Shown here piece after piece: positions 24,311 to 62,959 of a DNA stretch of 64,000 nt (position 1 is the stretch's first letter; each line of letters begins with the position of its first letter). The notes under the pieces are model-generated. The model did no database searches and was not told the DNA's origin. It saw nothing but the letters and a program-made list of their open reading frames with translations. The translations under genes were made by a program, and so were the position numbers. Source of the DNA: Pristiophorus japonicus (Eukaryota); NCBI RefSeq assembly GCF_044704955.1, contig NC_091995.1:26660001-26724000 (forward strand), in the 5' to 3' direction.

Positions 24311-25763
24311 AATAAATAAACCGCTTAAGTGGGTGTGTTTGAGGTATCTGAAACATAACAGGCAGTGTGGGCACGGGTCCATCTCCATCTCTCTCTATCT
24401 CCAGCCCCAGCTCCAAGTGCCCGGAGAGATCCCACCACCCCAGGTACAATGATTCTGTGCTTCCTGAGCAGGGCCCGGGGTGCCTGCTGTCCCATTGACC
24501 ATTTCACCGCTTTCAATAAGCGGCCTCATCTCGTTCATATAACATCGAAAATACACGTTTTTTTCTCATTTCAATAGTTTAGTTACGATCCCATGCCCAA
24601 GCTTGGTTATTGGGAGAGACCAAACATATAGAGGACATGCTGAGGGCGGGGATTACATTCGACAGATGCGGATTTTCATCAGAGTTGATGTCCTTCCGAC
24701 TTGGGTTTGCAAACAAGGGTTTCAAATACTTTCTATAAGAAAATAATTGTCCCTTTGACCATGAGCAATAATTGCTATTTTTTATCATATTTCCGTACAT
24801 CAAAATACATTCTGCACACTACCCCTCAATTAAGATCACAAAAAATGTAATTTATCTCTTTGCTATATCTGGAACATTGCTGAGCACACATTGACTGCTG
24901 TATTTCCTGACATTAAACGGTGACTACACTGTAAATTACTTCATTGTCTGTGAGAGACTTTGTGTCGTCCTGAGGTTGTGAAAGGTGTAAATCTGAGTTG
25001 TTTCTTCCCACATTGATCCACACCCAGAAATTATTTCTGTCCCCCTCACTTTGCCCGCTGTTTATGTCTCAATGATCCTGTGAAGGGATTGATCCTCTCG
25101 GGTTTACTTTGCTCAGCACACTGAGCATTAAATGAGAGATCATTTGTTCTTTCTTTACTTGAAGTCCACATGTCGGCAGGTACCAGTAACCGCTATAATA
25201 GACAGGTCAGTGCTCCCAATAACACTGGTTGTGATCAGTGAGCCGGGAGCTGCACAAACTGGAGCAACTGATGGTTGGGAGTAAGGCCTGAAAAACCCGC
25301 TTCACAGAAAAGGCCTGGAAATCACAGTGAAAGGCTTGTGGGCAAAAGACAAAAGGGTCAGAAGGGCGACTCACAACTGCAGTGGGCAGAGGGCGGGGCA
25401 GGAATTCACAGCGGGGGGATTCCCAGAGGTGCTTTCGCCAGAGTTAGGCTGGGGTCAGGACCGCATTAGTTCCAGTTTACAATTCAGAACAAGGGTTTTA
25501 CTCCCCGATTATAATCGCTCCACCATTAGTGGCCCTGCCTTCAGCCGCCTCGACCCGAAACTCTAGAATTCCCTGCTCAAACCTCTCCGCCTCTCTACCT
25601 CTCCCCCTACTTTGCGACTCTCCAAGGAACCTCACTCTTTGACCAAGCTTTTGGCCATCTGCCCTAATTTCTCCTCATGTGTCTCGGCATCAAATGTTGC
25701 TTTATACAGCTCCTGTGATGTTATATGAATGCAACTTGTTGTTGTTGAAACATTGTGAGGAAG

Positions 25764-26597
25764 TTATTGCAGTTCCAGCAGGACTTCAAATGGATTGAAT
25801 TCTCCAGCCGTTGTCCACCCCTGAACAGCGCGATCCCCGGGTGTGGGTTGAGTTCTCCCGCTGTCAGTCGCTCTGTATCTTTGGCTCGCACACAATTATA
25901 GGCAGGCCCCGAGCACAGTGACAGCGCCAAAGATGAGCACACGGAGCAGGAGAGCGGGTGGGTGGTCGGTGAGCTGTCCGGGGGTCTCCGCTTGCTCTGT
26001 GCAGCTCCGGGTCGGATGCTCAGTGTCTGAAACAAAAATTTGATCATTTACAGCAACCCGACTAGGTTCAAAAGGCAGACTTTAATCATTCTTTATCAAT
26101 TTGCTGGCAATATTCAGCTTGTTTCCAAGCGACAAGTACAGTGTCGTCAAATAATGTTCCTCTATCAGCAAAAGGCACTGAGGATTAGATGGGTTCAATA
26201 ATCAGACTGTGAATTCCTACCTGTCCCGGGATAGACTGTGAACGTCACATTCCGTTCACTGGCTGTGTTCCCACCACTGTGAACACGCTGCTGTCACTGG
26301 GCTGCAGATCCCACAGAAACAAGGATCCATTCTCCGGGTTTATGTGGACTCTCTCCCTGTGGGAAGGAGCGACCCGCTGGTAATCTGAACAGGTATACCC
26401 GGGTCTGTCAGGGTCGGCAGAGCAGTTTGTTCGGAACAATATCACAAATGCACTGTCTCCGGGGAATAAAAACCAGGTTATCTTTACAGTGGTGTAGGGA
26501 GTGAGTGTGGAGTAGGAGACGGGGAGAAGCACAAACTGGTTCACCGTCCCGCTCACTTCTCTCTGACCGACGCTCACAGTAATCCGGCTTCCAGAGG
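25764..26597 (-). pseudogene. IgSF array copy 5 (V 26597-26221; stalk/TM/tail 26026-25764; leader deleted)
   Basis: The V exon is 377 nt (13-nt deletion in the DSGVYV strand). There is a TAC>TAA nonsense change inside the TM at 25896-25898. Only the leader's donor site survives, at 27718. Confidence 0.85.
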
Positions 26598-27718
26598 CTG
26601 CAACACATTCAAAACAATAAATCAGCTTCAGAATGGGAAATAAAACAGCTTAGAATTCCTTAAGAAGGTTTTAAATCGGGAGTCTGGTTATAAAGCATCC
26701 CATGAATTCGAAATCACAAAATACCTGCAGCACCAACAAAGAATACATTTGATAGAATGAACATAACGACCAGTCAGACAACATGAAATTATAGAATCAT
26801 AGATCCATACCGCACAGAGGGAAGACATTCGGCCCATCGTGTCTGTGCCGGCTCTTTGAATTCCAATTCGTGCCCCTCCCCCGTCCTTTTCCCAAAACCC
26901 TGGAAAGGTTTCCTTTTCAACTATATATTCAATTCCCCTCTGAATCTTTCTGTTGTATCTGCTTCCACCACCCTTTCAGGGAATGCATTACAGATCATAA
27001 CAACAGCATGTGAGACTTTAATAATTAAATCGTCACTATTAAATTAAAACAAAGAGCTCAGGATAAATACATTTACCCAGAGAGTGGAGAGAATGGGGAA
27101 CTCGCTACCACAAGGGGTGGTTGAGGTGAATAGCTTAGATGCATTTAAGGGGAATCTGGATAAACACCTGAGGGAGACGGTAAAAAAGGGATATGTGGAT
27201 GGGTTAGATGATGTAAATAGATTGTGGGGAGGGTGGTAAGGAGCTTATACACCGGCTTATAACAGTTTGTCTGAACGGCCTATTCTGTGCTGTGAATTCG
27301 ATGAAATTTGATTTAATAATCATTAAAAATAGACTTGGGAGAAAACAATTGATACAATCTGCCAATTTTACACATTTGATACACACGGGAACATCTGACA
27401 AATTAACAAATAATAATAATTGAAGAACTGTTGGAGATCAGTTAATTCATTAATAACTGTCAGCTACAGTTATAGATTGAGGTAACTCTCAGTGTGGAAC
27501 AGTGAGGGCAGGTGGTGAGGGGGAATCTACCTGTTCACAGGAGCCCAACTGAATGAGACTGAAGATCTCAGGGAATGAGTTGAGCTTCATTCACTTTAGA
27601 TCAGTGAGCGATTGAACCCCAGCCCCGATTAAAGACAGTCAGCAAAACAGTTACACAGAGTCAAGGGGAAACGCAGAAACAGAATTACATTGATACTGGA
27701 AGTGAGAAAAAAACTTAC

Positions 27719-30144
27719 CGCTGTCAGTCGCTCTGTATCTCCGGCTCACACACAAGTACAGGCAGGCCCCGAGCACAGTGACAGCGCCAAAGATGAGCAC
27801 ACGGAGCAGGAGAGCGGCTGGGTAGTCTTGGAGTTGTCCGCTGGTCTCCACTTGCTCTGTGCAGCTCCGGGTCGGATGCTCAGTGCCTGGAACAAGAATG
27901 TGATCATTTACAGCAATCCGACTATCAATTTGCTGGCAATATTCAGCTTGTTTCCAAGCGACAAGTGCAGTACAGTTAAATAATGTTCCTCTATCAGCAA
28001 AGGACACTGAGAATTTAATGGGTTCAATAATCAGACTGTGAATTCCTACCTGTCCTGGGATAGACTGTTAACGTCACATTGCGTTTACTGGCTGTGTTCC
28101 CACCACTGTAAGCAGATATCACGATGCTGTCACTGGGCTGCAGATCCTACAGTAACACGGATCCATTCTCCGGGTCGATGTGGACACCCTCCCTGTGGGA
28201 AGGAGCGACCCGCTGGTAATCTGAACAGGTATACCCGGGTCTGTCAGGGTCGGCAGAGCAGTTTGCTTGGGTCAGTGTCACTAATGGAGTGTCTCCGTGG
28301 AACAAAAAACACTTTATCTTTACAGTGGAGTAGGGAGTGAGTGTGGAGTCGGAGACGGGGAGAAGGACAGACTGGTTCACCGTCCCGCTCACTTCTCTCT
28401 GACCGACGCTCACAGTAACACGGCTTCCAGAGGCTGCAACACATTCAAAACAAAAAATCAGCTTCAGAATGGGAAATAAAACAGCTTAGAATTCCTTATG
28501 AAGATTTTAAATCAGGAGTCTGATTATAAAATATCCCATGCGTTCGAAATCACAAAATACCTGCAGCACCAACAAAGAATACATTGGATCGAATGAACAT
28601 AACGACCACTCAAGAGCATGAAATTATAGAATCATAGATCCATACAGCACAGAGGGAGCCCATTCGGCCCATCGTGTCTGTTTGAACGTGCTATCCAATT
28701 AATCCCACTCCCCCCCCGCTCTCTCCCCGGAGTCCTGCAAATGTTTCCTTTTCAACTATATATTCAATTCCCTTTTGAATTTTATTGTTGAATCTGCTTC
28801 CACCGCCCATTCAGGCAGTGCGTTCAGATCATAACAACAGCATTTGAGAGGTTAATCATTAAATAGTCACTATTAAATCGATAAAAGGAATTCAGGAGAA
28901 ACATTTTTATCCAGAGGGATGTGAGAATGTGGGACTCGCCAGCACAGGGAATGGCTGAGGCGAATAGTATAGAGACATTTAAGGCGAAGCTCGATAAACA
29001 CATGAGGGAGAAAGCTATAGAGGGATATTTTGTTCGGGTTAGTTGAAGTAAATAGGTTGTGGGGTGGCTCTTGAGGAGCATAAACCGGCTAGACCAGTTT
29101 GTCCAAATTACCTATTCTGTGCTGTATATTCTATTTAGAAACATAGAAACATAGAAAATAGGTGCAGGAGCAGGCCATTCAGCCCTTCTAGCCTGCACCG
29201 CCATTCAATGAGTTCATGGCTGAACATGAAACTTCAGTACCCCCTTCCTGCTTTCTCGCCATAACCCTTGATCCCCCGAGTAGTAAGGACTTCATCTAAC
29301 TCCCTTTTGAATATATTTAGTGAATTGGCCTCAACTACTTTCTGTGGTAGAGAATTCCACAGGTTCACCACTCTCTGGGTGAAGAAGTTTCTCCTCATCT
29401 CGGTCCTAAATGGCTTACCCCTTATCCTCAGACTGTGACCCCTGGTTCTGGACTTCCCCAACATTGGGAACATTCTTTCTGCATCTAACCTGTCTAAACC
29501 CGTCAGAATTTTAAACGTTTCTATGAGGTCCCCTCTCATTCTTCTGAACTCCAGTGAATACAAGCCCAGTTGATCCAATCTTTCTTGATAGGTCAGTCCC
29601 GCCATCCCGGGAATCAGTCTGGTGAACCTTCGCTGCACTCCCTCAATAGCAATTCTATGTTATAATCATTACATAAAGACGTGGTAGAGAACAATTGATC
29701 CAATCTGCCAATGTTACACATTTGCTAAAAGATACACACGGGAACATCTGACACATTAGTATAAAACAATAATTAAAGGCTTGTCAGAGATCAGTTAATT
29801 GATTAATAAATCCCAGCTACAGTTATAGATTGCGGGAATTCCCAGTGTGGAACAGTAACTGGAGGGCAGGTGGTGAGGGGGAATCTACCTGTTCACAGGA
29901 GCCCGACTGAATGAGACTGAAGATCTCAGGGAATGAGTTGAGCTTCATTCACTTTAGATCAGTGAGCGATTGAACCCCAGCCCCGATTAAAGACAGTCAG
30001 CAAAAAAGTCACAGAGTCAAGGGGAAACTCAGATACAAAATTACATTGATATTAGAAGTGAGAAAAAAACTTACCGGAGAGGGAAATAAAATAACTGACG
30101 AAAAGAAAAATGTTGGTGAATTTAAAGTTTATTTTCCGGCACAT
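27719..30144 (-). pseudogene. IgSF array copy 6 (leader 30144-30075; V 28433-28050; stalk/TM 27886-27719)
   Basis: Intact 70-nt leader MCRKINFKFTNIFLFVSYFISLS-G|GTAAG. The V exon is 384 nt and in frame but has TGG>TAG at 28147-28149 and a 6-nt loss in the F strand. The TM exon is 168 nt and its tail is deleted. Confidence 0.85.
29137..29651 (-). mobile_element. CR1 3' fragment in intron 1 of copy 6
   Basis: RT C-terminal ORF at 29234-29638; repeated TAGAAACA tail. Confidence 0.9.
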
Positions 30145-38650: not shown

Positions 38651-39400
38651 AAAAATACTACCGCCTGCCCACGTTTTTGGGGTGGAATCAGCAGAATGGG
38701 CAAATTCAACGCCCATAGGTGGTGAAATTGACACAGGGCAATCTCATGGTCACTAGTTTCGGTAAATATGCTCTTTACGACAAAAGAAAGTGGGCGGGCG
38801 TTAATATTGAATCTTGGCGTTAAATCCATGCGGAAAGTAATGCTGGGAGATATTATGGGTGTTGAATTTGCCCATTCTGCTGATTCTGCCCCCAAAAAGT
38901 GGGCGGGAGGTAATATTTTTTCCCGGCATTAAGCACATGGGGAACGTAATGCTCGTCAATAAGTTTCCGAAAAATTCAGTTTCCATTTTTAATCACATGT
39001 CGCGTCCTTTAAAAGGCTGCTGTGCTTCAATCTCGGTGGAGTTCGGATGTACTCTGTAGGTCGATGGAGTTGATGTGAACATCTGTAAAAACATCTTGAC
39101 CATACTGTGACCGATTGGAATAGAATAGGTGTCTTCGTCGGGGCATTCCTTGTTTGTGTGCAATTGGTGGAAAACAGAGAGCTACTGCATGACCAATTAG
39201 AAATATAGAAACATAGAAAATAGGTGCAGGAGTAGGCCATTCAGCTCTTCGAGCCTGCACCATCATTCAATAAGATCATGGCTGATCATTCTATCAGTAC
39301 CCCTTTCCTGCTTTCTCTTCATACCCCTTGGTCCCCTTAGCCGTAAGGGCCATATCTAACTCCCTCTTGAATATATCCAATGAACTGGCATCAACAACTC

Positions 39401-40081
39401 TGTGGAAATGTATTTTTATCTAAGCTGATACCAAACGGTATTTGTGTGCCTTTTGATTAAAATGGAGTCCTGGCCCTTCCAGAACTTTCTGCATTTTAGC
39501 AGCCAGCTTATTATGAACAGCTAAACCTGCTGTTAGATGGCTGATGGTTATCAGACAGCTAGGAGACAAGTCATGCTGAGACAAGTAACCCCCCATGGTG
39601 CTCTCCTATTGTCTACACTACAGGAGTTCCATGTCACCCCACCCTTATCTTCTAGCCATTATCTCTTTCCTTTACCTCATCCATTTGAAGCAAACAGGTA
39701 AACTGACCAGGAAATGGGATAATCTGTATTCACAATACAAGACAGGTGATAGCCCATTACCTATGACTCATGGAGTAATGGCCGTTTGGCTTTCTGATAA
39801 CCCTGACAAAAGGAAATATCTTGACACCATTTCCGGACCAGGATATAGTAATTAACTCTTTATCTGTATTCACTGACTGTGAGACAGAGCAATACACAGG
39901 GAGAGGCCAGAACTTGGGTTTTACTGTATAAATATCTTGTGAAGCTGTACCATTGCGGAGGTTTCATTTTAGCCCTTGACTGAGTGAAACTTACCCCTTG
40001 CGAGCAAGTAAATTAAAAGGGAAACTTCCATCGGAGCTGTAAGTGTCGGAGTCATTCTTTTCGGAGGTCAAGATTTCGACA
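39401..40081 (+). repeat. ERV 5' LTR
   Basis: Direct repeat of 42875-43555; TATAAATA at 39927-39934 and ATTAAA at 40012-40017. Confidence 0.95.
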
Positions 40082-40086
40082 GTTAT

Positions 40087-40104
40087 TGGAGGTCCCACCG
40101 AGAT
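40087..40104 (+). promoter_or_regulatory. Primer-binding site, tRNA-Gln
   Basis: TGGAGGTCCCACCGAGAT lies 5 nt after the LTR and matches the Gln PBS as I recall it from endogenous gammaretroviruses. Confidence 0.88.
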
Positions 40105-41057
40105 GCATACTCTCTGTTCTGTGAGTAAAACGGATACAGGCATAGTGCCTCTCCAGTGAAAGGCTTCGGTGGCCAAACAAGGTGAGCCTTTGCTCACAAG
40201 AGGTTTCTTCACTGTTGAATCGCAGATGTAATCTGTTGTCCACAGCTGAGGTACTGCATCTACAAGACTCGGCATTTAAAAGTTAAAGGTATTTTTTTTA
40301 TAACCATTTCTTTCTCAGCTCGCCAGCAGAAGAGAACAGGTTCTGGAAAAAATCTCGAGACAGCCCGGGGAAGGTTTCAGTAGGTAAGGAAGCGCTAGTC
40401 GATCGAAAAGGGTTCCAGGTTCTTATATGATAAGATTTTTATTGTTTTTAATTCGGAAGGGGTTCTTATGTGATAAGACTATTAAAAGAAAAGGAAAAAA
40501 AAAAAGAAAGCGCTAATAATCGATCGAAGGTTCTTATGTGATAAGATTTTTATTGTTTTTAATTCGGAAGGGGTTCTTTTGTGATAAGACTATTAAAAAA
40601 AAAGAGCGCAATCGATCAAAGAGTTTGGGTACGGAACCTTAAGTTTTATCAGCTGTTATTAGGATAAGTTAAGGACTCGGTCTGTAGTGGCGTACAACGC
40701 AGACTGAGAATTTGTTTAGAGGTTATGATTTGTGTATTCACGGGAATATTGTTTGTTGTCCTTGTATTACTGTTGTGTGCAATACCTTTGTGAGTCATTG
40801 CCATTAGAGAAACGGGAAGAGTCACTAGGGAAAATTGTGATTCGAAAAAAAAAACACAAGGATTGATTAGGAAAAGAAACAGTAACTGATTGATCAACTA
40901 CGGTTGGTTCGTGCCAACATATCTCACACACCCAGACTGAGCCCGAATTAAGAGCCTTTTCAGGCCACGTAACGGCCAGGAGAAGTGGGCGTAGAGAACT
41001 CGGTTGGCCGAAAGGATTGTGAGATCAGAAACTGTGGGAAAATCTTAATCATCCAGA

Positions 41058-41400
41058 ATGGGTGCCGGAGCAAGTTAAAACACCACAAAAGGCACACCAG
41101 CCTATGTCATGCTCCAGAATTGTGGTCAGTCTTCAATTGACCAAAGAAACAAAAACGGTAAAGTGGACTAAGGGTGAAAACAGGCCATTTCCATCCGATG
41201 GGTCATTTAATTTAGAGAGAACAACTTGTCTCCAGGAGTGTCTTATAAACAGAGATCCAGGTAAAAAAAAAAAGGAAAGTAATAGAAAAGTCCTGGGTTC
41301 CGATTCTTCAAGCCCATGTAAAATTAACAGAGGAAGTAAATCAAATGAAAAAAAAAGAGAACCTGATAGTGACTTATGAAAAAAAAAATGAAGCTAGTAA
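41058..41400 (+). pseudogene. gag: ERV gag matrix remnant
   Basis: MGAGAS (myristoylation-type start), a stop, then GTPAYVM and KWTKG...FPSDGSFNL, resembling class-I MA. Confidence 0.6.
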
Positions 41401-42047
41401 AAGAAAAAGCTTTATTGAATGGAGAGAGACTTGTGAATGTCTTGTCTTTGAATGAGAGTGCGTGAATGTCTTGTCTTTGAATGAGAGTGCTTCTGTCTTT
41501 TTTCCTTGTGTCTGGAAACCTGTTTGGAAAAGTTGTGGAGCTGCCTGTTTGTTTTAGCTCCACCCACTTTTTCAAACAAAGTGAAGTTTTTTTTAACCCT
41601 TCATAGTGTTGTCCTGTATGTGGGAAGTTTAAGACATTTTAAGTTAGAAGCGCAGGTGTGGATTTATTCGGATGAGAGGTTACAGAGCTAGGAAATGCAC
41701 AAAGGGATAGGTTTGTTGAGACATGGTCCCGGTGGTTAAAAGTTGTAATGCCTTTTTTTTTTAAAAGCCTTTGTGGGTCTCTCGAGGTGCAGGCTGGGGG
41801 AGTACACTCTCATTGTCCTTGGTGTAAAATCTTGGTACAAAAGCTTCTAACTCAGTAGGAGGATTTTTTTGGATAAAGAGTGGCAGTACAATAATTGAAT
41901 TGGGATTTTGAGATATTTCAGGTGATCTCCTTGATCAACATTTTGAGTGTATTGGAAAAATCTTGGGTTTGGAAGCCTTTTAATAAGATTAGAAAACAAG
42001 TACTTTACATTCTGTGATCTGTGAATCACTATAAGCATAAATGAGAA

Positions 42048-42815
42048 GTCCGTGTAACACACAGATTCGTCCAGTTCAGAAGCCCACACAAATGGAGGTT
42101 TGTCCATGACCTACGAGCTGTGAATGAATCTACTATATTCTCACAATGCTTAAAGGATGTGGAATGAAGTATTCCGGAATGCTTTCCAGAATCTTAAACA
42201 GTCCCTCACTTCAGCACCAGCCTTGGGATTACCAGATTACACTAAGCTATTCAACTTATTTGTGCATCACAAGTCGGGTTTTGCACAATCTGTTTTGACT
42301 CAGTTACATGGGGACAGGCAGCGACCGGTAGCGTATTTCAGTACCCAACTAGACCCAGTGGCACGCGGACTACCAGGATGGCTTCCTTTGTTGGCAGCAG
42401 CTTATTATGCTATGCAACAGGCTCAGACAATCAAAAATGCAGAACAAGTGGAAAATCTCCTGCGAGCCATTTAATGCCCCTTAAAACTTGCCATTATCAA
42501 ATGCCAAGCACATACAGGCCAGTCGAATGAGGTGGCACTTGGGAATGCCAGAGCTGATAATGCAGCTAAGTCAGCAGCTCTGTTGAAAGGGGGGATGCAG
42601 GTGTCATTGTTCCCACTAAGGAAAAATAATTGCTCAGACCCGCCACCCACTATTAATGACGTGCTGGCCTTTCAGACACAGGCCAGTACGGAGGAGGTGG
42701 TGACCTGGACGAAGGATCAATGTTATAAAAATCCAGAAGGAATATGGGTTCACCATGACGGCCGCGTGGTGGCCCCTAGATCCTTACTTCCATGGATTGC
42801 CCGATGTGTTCATGG
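42048..42815 (+). pseudogene. pol: ERV pol remnants (RT N-terminus, tether, RNase H, integrase start) joined by deletions
   Basis: SPCNTQIRPVQKP, WRFVHDLRAVN, AFQNLKQSLTSAPALGLPDY...RPVAYFS.QLDPVARG, IIKCQAH...GNARADNAAK, GRVVAP. Confidence 0.88.
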
Positions 42816-42874
42816 AGAGACTGTACAAGATCAGAATGGATTGAGTTGTCCTTGTGAAGGACAAAATGGGGGAA

Positions 42875-43555
42875 TGTGGAAATGTATTTTTATCTAAGCT
42901 GATACCAAACGGTATTTGTGTGCCTTTTGATTAAAATGGAGTCCTGGCCCTTCCAGAACTTTCTGCATTTTAGCAGCCAGCTTATTATGAACAGCTAAAC
43001 CTGCTGTTAGATGGCTGATGGTTATCAGACAGCTAGGAGACAAGTCATGCTGAGACAAGTAACCCCCCATGGTGCTCTCCTATTGTCTACACTACAGGAG
43101 TTCCATGTCACCCCACCCTTATCTTCTAGCCATTATCTCTTTCCTTTACCTCATCCATTTGAAGCAAACAGGTAAACTGACCAGGAAATGGGATAATCTG
43201 TATTCACAATACAAGACAGGTGATAGCCCATTACCTATGACTCATGGAGTAATGGCCGTTTGGCTTTCTGATAACCCTGACAAAAGGAAATATCTTGACA
43301 CCATTTCCGGACCAGGATATAGTAATTAACTCTTTATCTGTATTCACTGACTGTGAGACAGAGCAATACACAGGGAGAGGCCAGAACTTGGGTTTTACTG
43401 TATAAATATCTTGTGAAGCTGTACCATTGCGGAGGTTTCATTTTAGCCCTTGACTGAGTGAAACTTACCCCTTGCGAGCAAGTAAATTAAAAGGGAAACT
43501 TCCATCGGAGCTGTAAGTGTCGGAGTCATTCTTTTCGGAGGTCAAGATTTCGACA
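42875..43555 (+). repeat. ERV 3' LTR
   Basis: Direct repeat of 39401-40081 at a constant offset of 3474. Confidence 0.95.
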
Positions 43556-44074
43556 ACTCTTTGCGGCAGGGAATTCCACAGGTTAACAACTCTCTGAGTG
43601 AAGAAGTTTCTCCTCATCTCAGTCCTAAATGGCCTACCCCTTATCCTAAAACTATGTCCCCTGGTTCTGGACTTCCCCAACATCGGGAACATTCTACCCG
43701 CATCTAACCTGTCCAGTCCTGTCAGAATCTGATATGTTTCTATGAGATCCCCTCTCATCCTTCTAAACTCCAATGTATAAAGGCCCAGTTGATCCAGTCT
43801 CTCCTCATATGTCAGTCCTGCCATCCCGGGAATCAGGCTGGTGAACCTTCACTGCACTCCCTCAATAGCAAGAACGTCCTTCCTCAGATTAGGAGACCAA
43901 AACTGAACACAGTATTCCAGGTGAGGCCTCACCAAGGCCCTGTACAACTGCAGTAAAACCTCCCTGCTCCTATACTCAAATCCCCTAGCTATGAAGGCCA
44001 ACATACCATTGGCCTTCTTCACCGCCTGCTGTACCTGTATGCCAACTTTCAAAGACTGATGAACTATGACACCG

Positions 44075-44490
44075 ATTACATGCAGCAGGCTCAACATCGC
44101 CGAAGGAATGTTCCACTGCATTATGTATCGAATGTAAGACGTGACAGACAGATGAGGAGGACCAGACGTTACACCCCCCACAAGTACAAAGAGAAGCATT
44201 TTTACCTCGACTTGCCTGACACCACCTGCCTTCGGAGACTGCGCTTCCGCAAAGAGGTTATCAGTGAGGTATGCCAGCTGATGAGGACAGTTCTGTAGCC
44301 AGCCAGCACCATCAGTACTGCACTGTCCGTCGAGGTCAAAGTCACAGCAGCACTGTTGTTCTACGCCTCGGGTTCTTTTCAGGCCACAGCTGGAGACATT
44401 TGTGGACTTTCTCAGCATGCCATATATTGCTGTATTAGACAGGTCACTGAAGCCCTGAATGCACGCAGGAGGGACTTGATCAGCGTCCAT
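44075..44490 (+). pseudogene. Harbinger transposase N-terminal half (HTH region), on the opposite strand to the C-terminal half
   Basis: YLDLPDTTCLRRLRFRKE...ALSVEVKVTAALLFYASGSFQ...GLSQ...CIRQVTEAL..RRDLIS. Confidence 0.85.
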
Positions 44491-45744: not shown

Positions 45745-48700
45745 CATTTTGATTTAAAGGGAAGGGTGCAATTTTATTTATTGTTGGAAAGGGATGACTG
45801 CAAATTTATTTATTGATTTAAAGGGAAAGTTGCAAACTTATTTATTGATTTAAAGGGATGGGTGCACATTTATTTATTGCTTAAAGGGACGGGTGAAGAT
45901 GTATTTATTGATTTGAAGGGAAGGTTGCAAATATATTTACTAATTTAAAGGGACGGGTGCAAATTTAGTAATTCATTTTGGGTGCCAATTTATTTATTGA
46001 ATTAAAGGGAACGCGTGAAAATTTGTTTATTGATTTAAACGGATGGGTGCACATTTATTTATTGATTTTAAGGGGTGGGTGCACATTTACTTGTTGATTT
46101 AAAAGGAAGGTTGCCCATTTATTTATTGATCGATTTAATGGGAAGATTGCAAATGTATTTATTGATTTAATGGGAAGATTGCAAACGTATTTATTGATTT
46201 AAAGGAAAGAGTGAAAATTATTAGTTGACTTCAAGGGAAGGGGACAAATTAATTTATTGATTTAAAGGGATGGTGCACATTTACTTTATTGATTTATAAA
46301 GAGAAGTTTGCAAATGTATTTATTGATGTAAAGTGATGGGTGCACATTTATTTATTGATTAAATTGATGTGTGAAAATGTATTTATTGATGTAAAGGGAA
46401 GGTTGCACATTTATTTATTGAGTTAAAGGGAAGGTTGCAAACTTATTTATTGATGTAACGGGAAAGTTGCACATTTATTTATTGATTAAAGGGACGGCTG
46501 CAAATCTATTTATTGATTAAAGGGAAGGGAGCAAACTTATTTATAGATTTAAAGGGATGGGTGCAAATTTATTGATTGATTTAAAGGGGAGGGCACAACT
46601 TTATTTATTGATTTAAAGGGAAGGGTGCAATTTTATTTATTGATTAAAGGGTTGGGAGAAAAAGTATTCATTGAAATAAAAGGTGGGTTAATATTTTATT
46701 TATTAATTTAAAGGGAAGGTTCCAACTTATTTATTGATTTAAAGGGACGGCTGCAAATTTAGTAATTTATTTTAATTTAAAGGGATGAATGCACATTTAT
46801 TTATTGGTTTAAAGGGATGTGTGCAAATTTATTTAATTGATTAAAATGAAAGTTTGCAAACTTATTTTTTGATTTGAAGGGATGATGCAAATTTATTTAT
46901 TGACTTAAGGGAAGCGAACAAGTTTATTTATTGATTAAAAGGATGGGTGCAAATATATTTATTGACTGAAGGGGAAGATGCAAAAAAAATTAATTGATTT
47001 AAAGGAATGGGGACACATTTATTTATTGATTTAAAGGAAGTGTTCACATTTATTTATTAATTTAAAGGGATGGTTGCAAACGTATTTATTGATTAAAGGG
47101 ATGGGTGCAAATATATTTATTCACTTGAAGGGAATGTTGCAAATTTAGCGATTGATTTAAAGGGAAGGTTGCAAACTTATTTCTTGATTAAAAGTGATAT
47201 AACATTTAATTATTGGTTAAAGGGATGGGTACAAATTTATTTATTTATTCAAGTTTATAAACTTATAAGTTTATAAGTTTATAAACTTATTTATTGAATT
47301 CAAGGGATGGGTGCACATTTATTTATGGCTTTAAAGGGATGGGTGCTGTTATATATGTAAACCTGTATATACCTTGTGTAGCCACCAGAGAGCTCATCCC
47401 CTGGAGTCCAAGAGACCCCACAATCCCTTGGGAGCACAGGTACTTAAGGAGGCCTCACAGGCTGGAGAGGCACTCTGGAGACCTGCAATAAAAGACTAAG
47501 GTCACACTTTACTTTGAGCTGACAGTATCCAGTTAGACTCATTATTCATACATAACAACTGGCGATGAAATACAGATGACGAACCCAACGATGCAGAGAA
47601 CAATGGACATCCTGGAGAAATTCTCAGAGGGAGATGATTGGGAAACCTTTGTGGAGTGATCCGAGTAATACTTAATGGCCAAATGAGCTGGAAGGAGAAG
47701 CGAATGCTGCCAAACGAAGGGCGATTCTCCTCACCGTCTGCGGGCCACCAGCATATGGCCTCATGAAAAATCTGCTTGTTCCAGCGAAACCCACAGAGAA
47801 ATCGTACGATGATTTGTGCACACTGGTCTGGGAGCATCTGAACCTGAAGGAAAGCGATCTGATGGCGAGGTACCGGTTCTACACCTACAAGAGGTCTGAA
47901 GGCCAGGAAGTGCGAGTTATGTCGCCGAGCTAAGACTTCTTGCAGGAAATTACGAATTTGAAGGATATTTGGAGCAGATGCTCAGAGACATTTTTGAACA
48001 TGGCATTGGCCATGAAGTGCTACTTTGCAAACTTTTGACTGCAGAAACCCCAACCTTGAGTAAAGCCATAGCGATAGCCCAGGCATTCATTGCCACCAGC
48101 GACAATACTATCAAATCTCTCAGCACACGAGTGCTGCTACAAGTACTGTGAATAAAGTGACTTTGTTTTCAAAGTGCAGCGTACAGGGCATGCCCCACAT
48201 GCCTGCAGCTGCACGTCCACAGATGTCTCAGAGTCCACCATCAAGGGTGATGAATGCAAGGCCATTAGCACCTTGTTGGCGCTGCAGGGGTGATCATCAT
48301 TTCCATTCATGCCGATTCAAAGAGTACGTTTGCAAGGGCTGTGGAACAAAGGGACACTTCCAACGTATGTGCAGGGGAGCGGCAAACCCTGTTAATCCTG
48401 CAAACCACCATGTTGCAGAGGAGGACAGATCCACGGCGGATCACAATGAACCAGAGCCTCAGACTGAGGAGACAGAGGTATACGGGGTGCACACATTTAC
48501 CACAAAGTGTCCACGGATAATGCTGAAGGTTGAATTAAATAGACGCCCGGTGTCAATGGAGCTGGACACGGGTGTGAGCCAGTCCATTATGAGCAAAAAG
48601 ACTTTCGATAAATTGTGGTGCAGCAAGGCCTCAAGGCTGGTTTTGACTCCCATTTGCATGAAACTGAGAACTTACACAAAGGAATTGATTCCCATAATCG

Positions 48701-51700
48701 GCAGTGCTACAGTAAAGGTCTCCTACGATGGAGAGGTGCACAAGCTACCACTCTGGGTGATTCCAGGTGATGGTCCCACGCTGCTCGGCAGGAGCTGGCT
48801 GGGAAAGCTACGCTGGAACTGGGACGATGTCCGAGCACTCTCGTCCGCTGATGACACTTCGTGTGCCCAGGTCTTAAACAAGTTCCCTTCGCTGTTCGAA
48901 CCAGGCATTGGGAAGTTCCAAGGAGCAAAAGTGCAGATCCACCTAATTCCGGGGGCGCGACCCATCCATCACAAGGCGAGAGCAGTACTGTACATGATGT
49001 GAGAAAGGATCGAGATTGAGCTGGACCGGCTGCAATGAGAGGGCATCATTTCGCCGATCGAATTCAATGAGTGGGTCAGTCCTATTGTCCCATTCCTCAA
49101 GGGAGATGGCACCGTCAGAATCTGTGGTGATTACAAAGTAACTATCAATCGTTTCTCCCTGCAGGATCAATACCCACTACCAAAGGCTGATGACGTTTTT
49201 GCAACGCTGGCGGGAGGAAAGATGTTCAAGAAGCTGGACTTGACCTCGGCCTACATGAAGCAGGAGCTGGAGGAATCATCGAAGGGCCTCACCTGCATCA
49301 ACACACACAAAGGTCTCTTCATTTACAACAGATGCCCGTTTGGGATTCGATCAGCCCCGGCGATATTCCAGAGAAACATGGAAAGCCTACTGAAGTCAGT
49401 CCCATGTACGGTGGTATTCCAGGACGTCATCTTGGTTACAGGTCGGGTCACAGTCGAGCATCTGCAGAACTTGGAGGAGGTTCTTAGTCGACTCAACCTC
49501 GTGGAGCTCACATTAAAATGCTTGAAGTGCATTTTCCTGGCACCTGAAGTGGAGTTCCTGGGGAGAAGAATCGCAGCGGACGGCATCAAGCCCACCGATT
49601 CGAAGACGGAGGCAATCAAGAACGCACCGAGGCCACAGAATGTGACGAAGCTGCAGTCGTTTCTAGGACTCCTGAACTACTTTGGTAACTTCTTACTGGG
49701 TCTCAGCACACTGTTAGAACCACTGCACGCCTTACTGCGTAAAGGAGATGAATGGGAATGGGGCAAAAGCCAATAAAATGCCTTTGTAAAAGCTAGAATA
49801 TTGTTATGCTCAAACAAATTGCTTGTGTTGTATGATCCACGTAAGCGTTTGGTACTAGCATGTGATGTGTCGTCGTACGGCGTTGGGTGTGTATTGCAAT
49901 AACCTAATGAATTTGGGAAATTGCAACCAGTTACTTATGCATCCAGAGGTCTGTCTAAGACTGAGAGAGCATACAGCCTGATTGAAAAAGAAGCATTAGC
50001 GTGTGTTTATGGGGTAAAGAAAATGCATCAATATCTGTTTGGGCTCAAATTTGAATTGGAAACTGACCATAAGCCACTGATATCCCTCTTTTCTGAAAGT
50101 AAGGGGATAAATACGAATGCATCGACCCGCATCCAGAGATGGGCGCTCGCATTACCCCATACAACTACGCCATGCACCACAGGCCAGGCACAGAAAACTG
50201 TGCCGATGCTCTCAGTAGACTGCCATTGCCCACCACGGGGGTGGAAATGGCCCAGCCGCAGATTCGAGAGTGAACAATCACCCGTCACAGCCCGACAGAT
50301 TAGAACGTGGACGAGCCAGTACCCCTTACTGTCCCTAATAAAAAATTGCGTGCTTCGCGGGAGCTGGTCCCATGTCCCAGTGGAAATGCAGGAAGAGATA
50401 AAGTCGTACCAGCGGCGCAAAGATGAAATGTCTTTACAGGCAGACTGCATTCTCTGGGGTAATCGCGTAGTGGTCCCCAAGAAGGGCAGGGACACTTTCA
50501 TCAGTGACCTCCACAGTGCTCACCCAGGCATTGTAATGATGAAAGCGATAGTCAAATCCCACGTGTGGTGGCCCAGTATCGATGCGGACTTAGAGTCCTG
50601 CGTGCACAAATGTAACACATGCTCGCAGTTAAGCAATGCAGCCAGGTCTTGGCCCAAAGCGTGATCCAGGGTCCATGTCGACTATGCAGGCCCGTCTTTG
50701 GGTAAAATATTCCTTGTGGTTGTCGATGCATACTCCAAATGGATTGAATGTGAGATAATGTCGGCAAGCACGTCTGCTGCCACCACTGAAAGCCTGCGGG
50801 CCATATTTGCCACGCACGGACTGCCTAATGTCCTTGTGAGCGACAACGGGCCATGTTTCACCAGTGCCGAGTTCAAGGAGTTCATGACCCGTAATGGGAT
50901 CAAACATATTACATCTGCCCCGTTCAAACCAGCATCCAATGGTCAGACAGAGAGAGCAGTGCAAACTATCAAGCAGGGCTTGAAGAGTGTAACTGAAGGC
51001 TCACTGCAGACTCGCCTATCCCGAGTCCTGCTTGGCTACCGCATGAGACCCCACACGCTCACTGGGATTCCACCTGCTGAACTGCTCATGAAAAGGGCAC
51101 TTTAGACAAGGCTCTCGTTAGTTCACCCTGATCTACAAGAACAGGTAGAGAGCAGGTGGCTTCAACAAAGTATATATCATGATAGTGCAAATGTGTCAAG
51201 CGAAATTGAAATCAATGATCCTGTATTTGTGTTGAACTATGGACAAGGTCCCAAGTGGCTTCCTGGCACTATTGTGGCCAAAGAGGGGGGCAGGGTGTTT
51301 CGGGTCAAACTTCAAATGGACTCATTCACCGGAAACACTCGGACCAAATCAAACTCAGATTCTCGGACTATCCAGAGCAACCCACTTTGGACCCTACCTT
51401 CTTTGAGCCCCCAACATACACACCAGTGGCAACCGGCACCGCAGTTGGCCACGAAGCAGAGCCCATCACCCGCAGCAGCCCAGCAGGACTCACCACACCA
51501 GGCAGCCCAGCAAGGCCAGCTGCACAGCAGCCCAGCGAGGGCCCAACATATGACTCACCAAAACCAGCATTTGCACCGAGATGATCAACCAGGGAAAGAA
51601 AGGCCCCAGATCGACTCACCTTGTAAATAGTTACACTGTTGACTTTGTGGGGGGGGAGTGTTGTTATATATGTAAACCTGTATATACCTTGTGTAGCCAC

Positions 51701-54170
51701 GAGAGGGCTCATCCCCTGGAGTCCCAAGGAATCCCACAATCCCTTGGGAGCACAGGTACTTAAGGAGACCTCACAGGCTGGAGAGGTACTCTGGAGACCT
51801 GCAATAAAAGACTTAGGTTACACTTTACTTTGAGCTCACAGTATCCAGTCAGACTCTTTATTCATACATAACAGGTGCAAATTAATTTATTGATTTAAAG
51901 GGAAGGGGATACATTTATTTATTGTTTTAAAGTGATGTGTGCAAATATATTTATTGACTGAAGGGAAAGCTGCACATTTATTTCCTGATTCAATGGGATG
52001 GTTGCAAAAGTATTTATTGATCTAAATGGAATGTTGCACGTATATTTATTGGATTAAGCTTAAGCGCTGGCTGCAAATTTATTTGTTGATTTGACGGGAA
52101 GGTTGCATATTTATTTTTTAATTTAAGGGGATGGGGTGCATCTTCATTTATTGATTAAAGGGATGGCTGCAAATTTATTTATTGATTAAAAGGGAAGTTT
52201 GCAAACTTATTTATTGATTAAAAGGATGGGTACAAATGCATTAATAATTTTGGGTGCAAATTTAGTTATTGAGTTAAAGAAAATGGGTGAAAATGTATTT
52301 ATTGATTTAAATGGGCGGGTGCACATTTATTGATTTAAAGGGAAGGTTGTACATGTATTTATTGATTGAAATCGCAGGGTGCAAGTAAATTTATTGATTT
52401 AAAGGGATGGGTGCACATTTATTCACTGATTAAAGCGATGAGTGCAAATGTATTTATTGATTTAAGGGGATGGGTACAAATTTGTTAATTAATTTTGGGA
52501 TCAAATGTATTTATTGAATGAAAGGGAATGCGTGAAAATCTATTTATTAATTTAAACCGAAGGTTGCACATTTATTGATTGATTTAAAGGAATGGGGACA
52601 AATTCATTTATTGATTTAAAGGAAAGGGCACAAATTTATTTATTGATTTAAAGGGATGAGTACATATATTTTTTTATTGATTTAAAGGGAAGGTTGTAAC
52701 TTATTTATTGATTAAAGGGATGAGTGCATATATATTTATTGATTCAAAGAGAAGGTGGCAAATGCATTGATTGAGTTAAAGGGAAGGTTGCAAACGTATT
52801 TATTGATTTAAAAGCATATAACATTTATTTATTGATTAAAGGTGTGGGTGAAAATGTATTTATTTATTTAAAGGGAAGTTTGCAAACTTGTTTATTCATT
52901 TAAAGCGATGGGTACAAATTAATTAAGGAATTTTGGGTGCAAATTTATTCATTGAATAAACCGATGGCTGCACATTTATTTATTAATTAAAAGCGCTGAG
53001 TGAAAATGTATTTTATTGATTTAAAGGGATGGGTGCACATTTATTTATTGCTTAAAGGGAAGGTTGCAAACTTATTTATTGATTTAAAGGGATTGGTGCA
53101 CGTTGATTAAAGGAAGTTTACAAATGTAGTTATTGATTTAAAAGGAAGATTGAAAATTTATGTATTAATTTAACGTGAAGTTTGCAAACTTATTTATTGA
53201 TTTAAATGGATGGGTACAAATTTAGTCATTCATTTGGGTGCAATTTTATTTATTGATTTAAAGGGAAGGTTGCAAATTTATTTATTGATTTAAAGCAATG
53301 GCTGCACATTTATTTAATGATTTAAAGGGAAGGTTGCAAACTTATTTATTGATTTAAAGGGACGGGTACAAATTTAGTAATTAATTTTGGCTGTAATTTT
53401 AATTAATCAGTTAAAGGGAAGGTTGCAAATTAATTTATTGATTTAGAGGGAAGATTGAAAATGTATTTGTTGATTTAAAGGAATATGTACATTTTTACTT
53501 ATTTATTTAATGAGAAGTTTGCATATTTATTTATTGACTTAAAGGGATGTTGCAAACATATTTATTGATTTAAAGGGATGGGTGCAAATATATTGATTGA
53601 TTTAAAGGGAATGGAACAAGTTTATTTATTGATTTATAGGGAAGTGGACAAATGCATTTTTTGATTTAAAGGGATGTGTGCAAATATATTTATTGACTGA
53701 AAGGGAAGCTGCAAATTTATGTATTGATTTAAAGGGAAGATGGCAAAAATATTAATTTATTTATAGCGATGGTGCAAATATATTTATTAGTTTAAAGGGA
53801 CGGGTGAACATTTATTTATTATTTAAAGGGATGGTTGCATATTTATTGATTGATTTATAGGGAAGTTTGCAAACTTATTGATTGATTTAAGGGGATGGGT
53901 GCACGTTAATAGATTGATTAAAGGGATGGGTGAAAATGTATTTATTGATTTAAAGGGAAGGTTACAAAGGTTTTTATTAATTTAAAGGGATAGGTGCAAA
54001 TTTATTTATTGATTAAAATGGAATGGGTGAAAAATTATTTATTGAGTTAAAGGGAATAGGGACAAATTTATTTATTGATTTAAAGTGAAGGGAACAAATG
54101 TATTTATTGATTTTAAGGAATGGGTGCAAATTTATTTTTGCATTTAAGGGATGGGCACATTTATGGTAAT
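45745..54170. repeat. AT-rich ~32-bp satellite (45745-47346 and 51874-54170) interrupted by Gypsy
   Basis: Degenerate tandem TTTATTTATTGATTTAAAGGGA(A/T)GG(T/G)TGCAAA. Confidence 0.95.
47347..51873 (+). mobile_element. Full-length decayed Gypsy (Mag/K02A2.6-like) LTR retrotransposon
   Basis: LTRs at 47347-47557 and 51662-51873 (TG...CA, roughly a dozen differences), 5-bp TSD GGTGC, PBS TGGCGA at 47560, G-rich PPT. Two zinc knuckles, protease LDTG, RT, RNase H and integrase (VSDNGP.F, SNGQ.ER), all with stops or frameshifts. Confidence 0.95.
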
Positions 54171-54217: not shown

Positions 54218-57200
54218 AGTCAGTGTGTGGTATGAGGGGTCAGTGTGTGTAGTGAGGGGTCACTGTGTGGAGTGAGGGGTCAGTGTGTGGAGTGAGGGCT
54301 CAGTGTGTGGAGTGAGGGCTCAGTGTGTGGAGTGAGGGCTCAGTGTGTGGAGTGAGGGGTCAGTGTGTGGTGTGAGAGGTCAGTGTGTGGAATTAGTGGT
54401 CAGTGTGTGGAGTGAGGGGTCAGTGTGTGGAGTGAGGGCTCAGTGTGTGGAGTGAGGGCTCAGTGTGTGGAGTGAGGGGTCAGTGTGTGGAGTGAGGGCT
54501 CAGTGTGTGGAATGAGGGCTCAGTGTGTGGAGTGAGGGCTCAGTGTGTGTAGTGAGTGTTACTGTGTGGAGTGAGGGATCAGTGTGTGGTGTGAGGGGTC
54601 AGTGTGTGGAGTGAGGGGTCAGTGTGTGGAGTGAGGGGTCAGTGTGTGGTGTGAGAGCTCAGTGTGTGGAGTGAGGGCTCAGTGTGTGGAGTGAGGGCTC
54701 AGTGTGTGGAGTGAGGGGTCAGTGTGTGGTGTCAGGGCTCAGTGTGTGGAGTGAGGGGTCAGTGTGTGGAGTGAGGGGTCAGTGTGTGGAGTGAGGGCTC
54801 AGTGTGTGTTATGCAGTGAGGGCTCAGTGTGTGGAGTGAGGGGTCAGTGTGTGGAGTGAGGGGTCAGTGTGTGGAGTGAGCGGTCAGTGTGTGGAGTGAG
54901 GGCTCAATGTGTGGAGTGAGGGCTCAGTGTGTGTTATACAGTGAGGGTTCAGTGTGTGGAGTGAGGGTTCAGTGTGTGGAGTGAGGGGTCAGTGTGTGGA
55001 GTGAGGGCTCAGTGTGTGGAGTGAGGGCTCAGTGTGTGGAGTGAGGGGTCAGTGTGTGGAGTGAGGGGTCAGTGTGTGGAGTGAGGGCTCAGTGTGTGGA
55101 GTGAGGGCTCAGTGTGTGGAGTGAGGGCTCAGTGTGTGGAGTGAGGGGTCAGTGTGTGGAGTGAGGGGTCAGTGTGTGGAGTGAGGGCTCAGTGTGTGGA
55201 GTGAGGGCTCAGTGTGTGGAGTGAGCGGTCAGTGTGTGGAATGAGGGGTCAGTGTGTGGAGTGAGGGCTCAGTGTGTGGAGTGAGGGTTCAGTGTGTGGA
55301 GTGAGGGCTCAGTGTGTGGAGTGAGGGGTCAGTGTGTGGAGTGAGGGGTCAGTGTGTGGAGTGAGGGGTCAGTGTGTGGAGTGAGGGCTCAGTGTGTGGA
55401 GTGAGGGCTCAGTGTGTGGAGTGAGGGGTCAGTGTGTGGAGTGAGTGGTCAGTGTGTGGAGTGAGGGCTCAGTGTGTGGAGTGAGGGCTCAGTGTGTGGA
55501 GTGAGGGCTCAGTGTGTGGAGTGAGGGGTCAGTGTGTGTGGAGTGAGGGCTCAGTGTGTGGAGTGAGGGCTCAGTGTGTGGAGTGAGGGGTCAGTGTGTG
55601 GAGTGAGGGTTCAGTGTGTGGAGTGAGGGGTCAGTGTGTGGAGTGAGGGGTCAGTGTGTGGAGTGAGGGCTCAGTGTGTGGAGTGAGGGCTCAGTGTGTG
55701 GAGTGAGGGGTCAGTGTGTGGAGTGAGGGGTCAGTGTGTGGAGTGAGGGCTCAGTGTGTGGTGTGAGGGCTCAGTGTGTGGAGTGAGGGCTCAGTGTGTG
55801 GTGTGAGGGCTCAGTGTGTGGAGTGAGGGGTCAGTGTGTGGAGTGAGGGCTCAGTGTGTGGAGTGAGGGGTCAGTGTGTGGTGTCAGGGCTCAGTGTGTG
55901 GAGTGAGGGGTCAGTGTGTGGAGTGAGGGCTCAGTGTGTGGAGTGAGGGGTCAGTGTGTGCTCAGTGTGTGGAGTGAGGGGTCAGTGTGTGGTGTGAGGG
56001 CTCAGTGTGTGGAGTGAGGGCTCAGTGTGTGGAGTGAGGGGTCAGTGTGTGGTGTCAGGGCTCAGTGTGTGGAGTGAGGGGTCAGTGTGTGGAGTGAGGG
56101 GTCAGTGTGTGGAGTGAGGGCTCAGTGTGTGTTATGCAGTGAGGGCTCAGTGTGTGGAGTGAGGGGTCAGTGTGTGGAGTGAGGGGTCAGTGTGTGGAGT
56201 GAGGGGTCAGTGTGTGGAGTGAGTGGTCAGTGTGTGGAGTGAGGGCTCAGTGTGTGGAGTGAGGGCTCAGTGTGTGTTATACAGTGAGGGTTCAGTGTGT
56301 GGAGTGAGGGGTCAGTGTGTGGAGTGAGGGGTCAGTGTGTGGTGTGAGGGGTCAGTGTGTGGAGTGAGGGCTCAGTGTGTGGAGTGAGGGATCAGTGTGT
56401 GGAGTGAGGGCTCAGTGTGTGGAGTGAGGGCTCAGTGTGTGGAGTGAGGGCTCAGTGTGTGGAGTGAGGGGTCAGTGTGTGGAGTGAGGGGTCAGTGTGT
56501 GGAGTGAGGGCTCAGTGTGTGGAGTGAGGGCTCAGTGTGTGGAGTGAGGGGTCAGTGTGTGGAGTGAGTGGTCAGTGTGTGGAGTGAGGGCTCAGTGTGT
56601 GGAGTGAGGGCTCAGTGTGTGTTATACAGTGAGGGTTCAGTGTGTGGAGTGAGGGGTCAGTGTGTGGAGTGAGGGCTCAGTGTGTGGAGTGAGGGCTCAG
56701 TGTGTGGTGTGAGGGGTCAGTGTGTGCTCAGTGTGTGGAGTGAGGGGTCAGTGTGTGGTGTGAGGGCTCAGTGTGTGGTGTGAGGGCTCAGTGTGTGGAG
56801 TGAGGGCTCAGTGTGTGGAGTGAGGGGTCAGTGTGTGCTCAGTGTGTGGAGTGAGGGGTCAGTGTGTGGTGTGAGGGCTCAGTGTGTGGTGTGAGGGCTC
56901 AGTGTGTGGAGTGAGGGCTCAGTGTGTGGAGTGAGGGGTCAGTGTGTGCTCAGTGTGTGGAGTGAGGGGTCAGTGTGTGGTGTGAGGGCTCAGTGTGTGG
57001 AGTGAGGGCTCAGTGTGTGGTGTGAGGGCTCAGTGTGTGGAGTGAGGGGTCAGTGTGTGGAGTGAGGGGTCAGTGTGTGGAGTGAGGGCTCAGTGTGTGG
57101 TGTGAGGGCTCAGTGTGTGGAGTGAGGGCTCAGAGTGTGGAGTGAGGGCTCAGTGTGTGGAGTGAGGGCTCAGTGTGTGGAGTGAGGGGTCAGTGTGTGG

Positions 57201-58680
57201 AGTGAGGGCTCAGTGTGTGGAGTGAGGGGTCAGTGTGTGGAGTGAGGGCTCAGTGTGTGGAGTGAGGGCTCAGTGTGTGGTGTGAGGGCTCAGTGTGTGG
57301 AGTGAGGGCTCAGTGTGTGGAGTGAGGGCTCAGTGTGTGGAGTGAGGGGTCAGTGTGTGGAGTGAGGGCTCAGTGTGTGGTGTGAGGGCTCAGTGTGTGG
57401 TGTGAGGGGTCAGTGTGTGGAGTGAGGGGTCAGTGTGTGGTGTGAGGGGTCAGTGTGTGCTCAGTGTGTGGAGTGAGAGGTCAGTGTGTGGTGTGAGGGC
57501 TCAGTGTGTGGAGTGAGGGCTCAGTGTGTGGAGTGAGGGGTCAGTGTGTGGAGTGAGTGGTCAGTGTGTGGAGTGAGGGCTCAGTGTGTGGAGTGAGGGG
57601 TCAGTGTGTGCTCAGTGTGTGGAGTGAGGGGTCAGTGTGTGGTGTGAGGGCTCAGTGTGTGGAGTGAGTGGTCAGTTGTGGAGTGAGGGGTCAGTGTGTG
57701 GAGTGAGGGCTCAGTGTGTGTAGTGAGGGGTCAGTGTGTGGTGTGAGGGCTCAGTGTGTGGAGTGAGGGCTCAGTGTGTGGAGTGAGGGTTCAGTGTGTG
57801 CTCAGTGTGTGGAGTGAGGGGTCAGTGTGTGGTGTGAGGGCTCAGTGTGTGGAGTGAGGGGTCAGTGTGTGGAGTGAGTGGTCAGTGTGTGGAGTGAGGG
57901 CTCAGTGTGTGGAGTGAGGGGTCAGTGTGTGCTCAGTGTGTGGAGTGAGGGGTCAGTGTGTGGTGTGAGGGCTCAGTGTGTGGAGTGAGTGGTCAGTGTG
58001 TGGAGTGAGGGGTCAGTGTGTGGAGTGAGGGCTCAGTGTGTGGAGTGAGGGGTCAGTGTGTGGTGTGAGGGCTCAGTGTGTGGAGTGAGGGCTCAGTGTG
58101 TGGAGTGAGGGGTCAGTGTGTGCTCAGTGTGTGGAGTGAGGGGTCAGTGTGTGGTGTCAGGGCTCAGTGTGTGGAGTGAGGGCTCAGTGTGTGGAGTGAG
58201 TGGTCAGTGTGTGGAGTGAGGGGTCAGTGTGTGGAGTGAGGGCTCAGTGTGTGGAGTGAGGGGTCAGTGTGTGGTGTGAGGGCTCAGTGTGTGGAGTGAG
58301 GGGTCAGTGTGTGGAGTGAGGGGTCAGTGTGTGGAGTGAGGGCTCAGTGTGTGGAGTGAGGGGTCAGTGTGTGGAGTGAGGGCTCAGTGTGTGGTGTGAG
58401 GGCTCAGTGTGTGGAGTGAGGGCTCAGTGTGTGGAGTGAGGGCTCAGTGTGTGGAGTGAGGGGTCAGTGTCTGGAGTGAGGGCTCAGTGTGTGGAGTGAG
58501 GGGTCAGTGTGTGGAGTGAGGGGTCAGTGTGTGGAGTGAGGGGTCAGTGTGTGGAGTGAGGGCTCCGTGTGTGGAGTGAGGGCTCAGTGTGTGGTGTGAG
58601 GGCTCAGTGTGTGGAGTGAGGGGTCAGTGTGTGGAGTGAGGGGTCAGTGTGTGGAGTGAGGGGTCAGTGTGTGTTATGCA
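54218..58680 (+). repeat. 20-bp G/T-rich satellite
   Basis: (CAGTGTGTGGAGTGAGGG(G/C)T)n over about 4.4 kb, highly homogeneous. Confidence 0.97.
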
Positions 58681-62936: not shown

Positions 62937-62959
62937 GATCGTGACTCCTAACATCCGCT

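Follow-up and report, generated by a model that had tools for sequence, protein, structure and literature searches.

Structure of the element and its insertion site

The stretch of Pristiophorus japonicus DNA analysed here (the window: 64,000 nucleotides (nt) of the forward strand, in which all coordinates are given) carries at 39401-43555 an endogenous retrovirus (ERV) with intact ends and a decayed interior. Its two long terminal repeats (LTRs, Table 1) both run from TG to CA and are identical at 681 of 681 bases, as the initial annotation of the stretch had reported. When satellite rows are removed, the window holds 64 repeat pairs of at least 250 base pairs (bp), among which the LTRs of the element are the only pair with 100% identity; the next best pair reaches 94.7%.

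The element is situated inside a long interspersed nuclear element (LINE) of the opposite strand, which is presumed to be CR1-like. Two further copies of this host LINE (8706-9302 and 29135-29652) are uninterrupted across the site, and the left and right flanks overlap there by 4 bases; the element is therefore a true insertion into the host LINE. The intact LINE in public contigs, judged by eye, also runs into sequence resembling the left flank. The target-site duplication (TSD) is the 4-bp motif ACTC, and the bases at the fifth position are unlike. A TSD of 4 bp is the typical length for class I ERVs.

The primer-binding site (PBS) begins 5 nt past the terminal CA of the 5' LTR, where a spacing of 2 nt is usual. 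On the opposite side of the interior a tract resembling a polypurine tract (PPT) at 42863-42872, with one pyrimidine, is followed by AA directly before the 3' LTR. There are thus 2 nt on the PPT side and 5 nt on the PBS side, which implies integrase trimming beyond the two bases taken as usual, and a joint in one of the public data sets (organism B, see below) suggests a shorter spacer there. The PBS matches at 18 of 18 positions an 18-mer that the available text of PMC1592299 takes as complementary to tRNA-Gln3. That labelling is followed here, and the identical 18-mer is labelled Thr in the part of PMC3564811 at hand. The TSD, the Gln PBS and the PPT are accordingly as intact as first described. 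Together, the two direct LTRs, the genuine insertion site with its short TSD, the PBS and the PPT are the parts of an ERV provirus. A LINE-made retrocopy or a tandem duplication was ruled out by the full LTRs at both ends, the 4-bp TSD and the lack of a polyA tail.

The element has no capacity to encode reverse transcriptase (RT), ribonuclease H (RNase H) or integrase. Comparison with related Pol proteins reduces pol to three collinear remnants covering 736 of 2793 interior bases, in agreement with the earlier description of a patchwork of short pieces. The first remnant is frameshifted, and the RT catalytic core is gone with the gap behind it. The second, from the RT connection, matches Pfam RT_RNaseH_2 (1.3e-12) and the RT of murine leukaemia virus (MLV) and xenotropic MLV-related virus (XMRV) (7e-21), and its best protein match is 67% identical; in the gap after it, RNase H has lost its N-terminal half. 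One in-frame stop interrupts the third. The reported absence of env was borne out by a six-frame translation with X at stops, in which no family of env, gag or integrase was recognised; the env of a control contig, L002, was found as TLV_coat (4.9e-08). This control is a metagenome assembly contig with a distant class I ERV at 1074-8465, whose gag-like, pol-like and env-like frames are long and open (zinc knuckle, TLV_coat); it is 47% identical to the pol remnant of the element and served as control only. A similarity between 41291-41535 and the end of the L002 env (E 0.006; 2 of 100 shuffles) was rejected as a post hoc pick from 16 queries that lies upstream of pol.

A stop after six codons had been assigned to gag. 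The short open reading frame (ORF) is present (41058-41078, an ATG and five codons with the stop at 41076-41078), but its gag identity found no support in the databases. The assignment of 41058-41274 to gag is an assumption based on an unconfirmed likeness to matrix motifs. No match to this segment came from four gag-bearing proteins (P0009, P0015, P0027 and P0030) or from Pfam, and the gag search gave two matches in a representative protein library, both to unrelated repeat proteins, and none in the ESM Atlas. When the L002 gag was compared with the interior of the element, 11 of 100 shuffles scored equally well. The leader holds a 77-bp internal duplication (40417-40493 and 40528-40604, 96% identical), and the predicted RNA fold of 39950-40420 is not significant (z = -1.64). 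A 29-bp tandem duplication is found at 41433-41490, in the segment with no assigned identity. The non-pol interior matches no other repeat of the window, Rfam gave 0 matches, and there is no tRNA gene within the window.

All four PDB matches of the pol remnant are gammaretroviral RT or Gag-Pol structures. The matching proteins carry RT_RNaseH_2 and RNase_H, and several also have Gag_p30 or MLV integrase C-terminal domains. By these sequence matches the element is a class I (ERV1) endogenous retrovirus. In a tree of 90 amino acids and 38 rows, the pol remnant falls outside the starred clade of 18 rows that holds most amniote rows (96/91). The nearest rows include coelacanth and reedfish, and no supported clade includes the pol remnant; an epsilon-like placement is likely. 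The gammaretroviral RT matches, together with a LINE ORF1 in the window that is closest to sawshark, agree with the initial annotation in placing a class I retrovirus in a cartilaginous fish.

Table 1. Features of the element at 39401-43555 and of its host LINE
Feature	Position	Strand	Remarks
Host LINE, left part	39198..39400	-	presumed CR1-like
Left TSD, ACTC	39397..39400	.	4-bp direct repeat flanking the element
5' LTR, 681 bp	39401..40081	+	TATAAA (39927) and polyA signal candidates (40007-40017), putative roles by consensus
LTR-PBS spacer, 5 nt	40082..40086	+	between LTR end and PBS
Primer-binding site	40087..40104	+	18/18 against tRNA-Gln3 PBS
Long leader	40105..41057	+	packaging signals likely
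Putative gag start and frameshifted matrix-like fragments	41058..41274	+	presumed resemblance, unconfirmed
Interior with no assigned identity	41275..42043	+	common to the family in public contigs
RT N-terminal remnant, frameshifted	42047..42128	+	followed by loss of 211-214 residues including the RT catalytic core
RT connection (tether) remnant, open frame	42160..42429	+	Pfam RT_RNaseH_2, MLV/XMRV RT
C-terminal end of RNase H, linker, start of integrase	42430..42813	+	stop at 42472-42474
3' untranslated remnant and PPT-like tract	42812..42874	+	env entirely, and integrase beyond its first residues, missing upstream
3' LTR, identical to 5' LTR	42875..43555	+	family-rare letter at 43308 (39834 in the 5' LTR)
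Right TSD, ACTC	43556..43559	.	4-bp direct repeat flanking the element
Host LINE, right part	43556..43971	-	continuation beyond the insertion

Family copies, decay and mobilisation

Eight public sequencing runs, available as fragmentary Logan contigs, carry the element: seven from organism A (four samples in two studies, with shares of 0.42-0.80 of the sampled words) and one from organism B (0.15). None of the listed runs that carry it is an RNA run. Four of the eight (X1, X5, X6 and X8) were aligned to 40082-44300, and 30, 30, 30 and 29 of 30 bins of this stretch were covered, with many variants; in X8 the stretch 40646-40786 is uncovered. In X5, whose contigs total just 136 Mb, individual interior contigs reach depths of 383, 715 and 910; summed depth does not measure copy number, and no such number was derived from it. 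Several contigs at high depth are within 0-1% of the window, other family pieces have diverged by 4-10%, and the organism B pieces differ at 71 of 1506 bases (4.7%). To judge from these contigs, the family is multi-copy and its copies vary in age.

The three deletions in the interior differ in how they are distributed among the copies. Record 28 of X8 (381 nt, depth 103, neighbours 93-185) is collinear with 41881-42258 and spans the RT junction, reaching 248 letters beyond it on one side and 99 on the other; the upstream join near 42044 is also identical. The RT deletion is therefore present in organism B too, and RT loss predates this insertion. At the RNase H junction (42430), contigs leave the path of the window with tails of 102 (X5), 408 (X8) and 46 (X1) letters, and at the 3' junction (42812) with a tail of 302 letters in X5. 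Fuller family copies exist at these two breakpoints, as the contig tails indicate, and both deletions are less common or confined to this copy. Deletions shared with other copies, which the reading in the initial annotation requires, were found in the case of RT (the one organism B contig) and not seen for the others among the contigs listed. The deletions of the element look nested. Contigs from both sides overlap by about 2 bases at 42430-42431 and 42812-42813, as microhomology-guided deletion predicts.

The point changes were compared with the LTRs. Five high-depth contigs of organism A differ from the window interior at 7 of 914 bases (0.77%). If all of these changes dated from after the insertion, the LTRs would be expected to differ at 10.4 positions, and the probability of finding none is 3e-5; if half of them belong to this branch it is 0.005. 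Both LTRs also carry a rare letter (39834 and 43308), which accounts for 329 of a depth of 152147 in X1 and is absent from X5, X6 and X8, and about 1.2 shared rare LTR sites are expected if the parent had already diverged. The combination of 0.77% in the interior, 0% in the LTRs and a shared rare variant speaks for a parent that had decayed before it was copied, and the point changes probably preceded integration. Deletions leave LTR identity untouched, and the LTRs therefore do not date the loss of RNase H and of the 3' region. The proposal that decay preceded integration is accordingly upheld for the RT deletion and probably for the point changes, while the RNase H and 3' deletions were possibly formed in place.

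An element without the RT core, half of RNase H and most of the integrase was most likely moved by borrowed proteins. The initial annotation's non-autonomous element mobilised in trans is likely, since RT loss precedes the insertion and the interior differs by 0.77% where the LTRs do not differ. With good confidence, the element can be regarded as the insertion of an internally deleted class I ERV from a multi-copy shark family, copied from a decayed parent and moved in trans by the proteins of an intact relative. The defective parent copy would have been transcribed from its 5' LTR and the RNA packaged by means of the leader into particles of an intact class I relative. Priming by tRNA-Gln at the PBS, followed by reverse transcription and strand transfers, would then have produced two identical LTRs, and an integrase-style insertion with enzymes from the helper would account for the 4-bp duplication. 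The deletions may have been stepwise, with RT lost first and RNase H and the 3' region later in a sub-lineage, probably through template jumps at 2-base overlaps. Since mobilisation inside germ cells needs no env, the helper need not be infectious.

Several observations weigh against this account. The RT bridge is one contig from one run, and among the matches listed (32 pieces) no organism A contig extends 31 letters past the RT junction in both directions. Nor does any contig among the matches listed bridge the RNase H junction or the 3' junction, and these deletions could be private and post-insertion. If only the strictly private interior sites are counted (5 among 40 listed: 41194, 42381, 42389, 42472 and 42584), P is 0.09 and decay in place is not rejected. 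LTR gene conversion is a known process, with candidate tracts in 25% of plant LTR pairs in the part of PMC7251063 available. No intact helper was found among the protein databases, where the best matches are 67% and 49% identical and there is little shark ERV sequence. Among viral contigs 0 of 13 pattern matches were related, and among metagenome contigs 3 of 259, all of them distant (43-47%).

The unbridged junctions, the private sites and the indifference of LTR identity to deletions would also suit a fuller provirus that was inserted here and later lost RNase H, integrase and env, its LTRs having stayed identical through a slow clock (the 95% age bound is given below) or become identical by gene conversion. 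However, the RT deletion in organism B means that even the parent was without RT and needed a helper, the interior divergence predicts 5-10 LTR differences, and gene conversion would need to span all 681 bp; decay in place is for these reasons unlikely. It is less likely still that collapse or polishing during assembly gave both LTRs a single sequence and that their identity says nothing about age. The family is indeed highly repeated and run X1 has only 0.80 of the sampled words, but both LTRs bear a letter found at 0.2% of depth, which polishing to the family majority would erase. The window is free of N, kilobase satellite arrays are resolved in it, no other repeat pair exceeds 94.7%, and the TSD, PBS and PPT are each at the correct junction.

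The age of the insertion has wide limits. In the available text of PMC4422223 a shark rate of 2.2e-10 per site per year is assumed, and the corresponding part of PMC10587355 gives a measured shark rate of 7e-10 per generation. With zero differences in 2 x 681 bp, the first rate gives a mean wait to the first LTR difference of 3.3 million years (Myr) and a 95% upper age of 10.0 Myr; the second gives 1.0 million generations and a 95% bound of 3.1 million (1.6-15.7 million over the interval of that rate). Shark DNA mutates very slowly, and identical LTRs therefore date the insertion only to the last 10 Myr or so. The age is between now and about 10 Myr, which is young for a shark ERV but need not be recent. 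The description of the element as 'very young' is for this reason not retained. X1 has 481 uninterrupted LINE contigs, and the flank is a LINE of very high copy number, so that these contigs are unassignable to this locus.

Mobilisation in trans may also have taken place millions of years ago, with a helper that is now extinct and an insertion that is now fixed. Such timing is compatible with copying from a decayed parent and competes with the 'recently active' helper of the initial annotation, and its chances are only a little short of even. It accords with the long mean wait to a first LTR difference, with the divergence of the family pieces and of organism B, by which the family is old, and with the failure to find a near-identical intact pol in the protein databases. 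On the other hand, the high-depth contigs within 0-1% of the window suggest a comparatively recent burst, the PBS has remained perfect, and there are intact candidates with identical LTRs in other elasmobranchs. The claim that this element implies a recently active helper is not supported, given the slow shark rates. The supposed helper is also less of a novelty than the initial annotation made it, since intact candidates with identical LTRs have already been listed for other cartilaginous fishes.

Other features of the window

At 12910-13722 on the minus strand there is a LINE ORF1 with an esterase-like domain, to which Pristiophorus japonicus proteins are 90% and 86% identical and ray proteins 46-58%. 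This places the host among the sharks, probably the squalomorphs. Broken gag-pol ORFs are found on the plus strand at 48064-50664, between two blocks of one 32-bp satellite (45749-47249 and 51874-54155). From their motifs they are presumed to be a Gypsy-like LTR retrotransposon, and no LTR pair of at least 250 bp belongs to them among the repeat pairs of the window. A G-rich array of a 20-bp unit (54220-58673, about 225 copies) and a C-rich array of a 23-bp unit (62955-64000, continuing past the end of the window) have strong and opposite GC skew. A 4.6-kb tandem duplication (17288-21817 and 22369-26860, 89% identity) is followed by further partial copies to about 30200.

Comparison with known systems and meaning for sharks

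The element is a shark instance of a known strategy, that of the helper-dependent non-autonomous ERV, which is well known in mammals. Mouse VL30 is coding-dead and depends on gammaretroviral (class I) proteins. MaLR is named as a non-autonomous LTR element in the available part of PMC10089650. Compared by description only, the shark element is similar to VL30 and MaLR in being coding-dead and helper-dependent but retains recognisable pol remnants. Defective ERVs complemented in trans include ERVK[2-1-LTR] D-type of cattle, mouse ETn/MusD, IAP I-delta-1 and koala RecKoRV (PMC10924933, in the text available). The deer mouse has a nonautonomous ERVK moved by complementation, for which the portion of PMC10089650 at hand defines a family by at least 5 full-length, gap-free defective loci. 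The shark element resembles these mammalian elements in its intact LTRs, PBS and PPT, the lack of a working ORF, the many copies and the remnants of gag and pol ends. Unlike them, it is of class I, has seemingly nested deletions of its own pol and not a foreign central segment, and includes a stretch (41275-42043) of no assigned origin. Its partner, unlike theirs, is known only by inference.

In cartilaginous fishes, the elephant shark CmiERV lineages II and III are epsilon-like and near-complete, with an LTR divergence of 0.024-0.033 (55-75 Myr) in the available text of PMC4422223. Compared by description only, both they and the element are of class I, whereas the element has 0 LTR divergence and no RT. 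Of the 13 cartilaginous fishes in Supplementary Data 1 of PMC10435555, as far as available, two (Amblyraja radiata and Scyliorhinus canicula) are listed with intact ERV candidates whose LTRs are identical. The element has identical LTRs in common with these candidates but is RT-less where they are intact. In the accessible files of that study, none of the candidates is confirmed as polymorphic in the final ERVi file, one Scyliorhinus canicula run is listed for testing, and no cartilaginous order is among the 37 orders with confirmed invading ERVs. Identical-LTR ERVs of elasmobranchs suggest relatively recent retroviral activity in the group. The element itself does not have the intact ORFs by which a currently invading ERV is recognised in the available text of PMC10435555. 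The screen described there requires an RT match of more than 100 amino acids and would therefore miss an RT-less element. The open literature, including the available part of PMC10699275, gave no description of non-autonomous class I families from sharks; most subscription papers, Repbase and Dfam were outside this scope, so the family may already be catalogued.

A bolder possibility is that an RT-less class I parasite lineage persisted across a shark species split, is still shedding its genome, and inserts today by means of a living, undescribed shark retrovirus. This is rather doubtful at present. If true, the element would for the first time mark retroviral mobilisation still under way in a cartilaginous fish, and it would be invisible to RT-based surveys.

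Shark retroviruses are otherwise known almost only as old fossils or candidates. Caution is needed in that identical LTRs in sharks are not equal to recent insertion. The LTR and PBS of the element are a ready probe for locating the helper. A high-copy RT-less family would mean that helper-dependent ERV parasitism extends to the cartilaginous fishes, whose ERV activity is then undercounted by screens based on RT.

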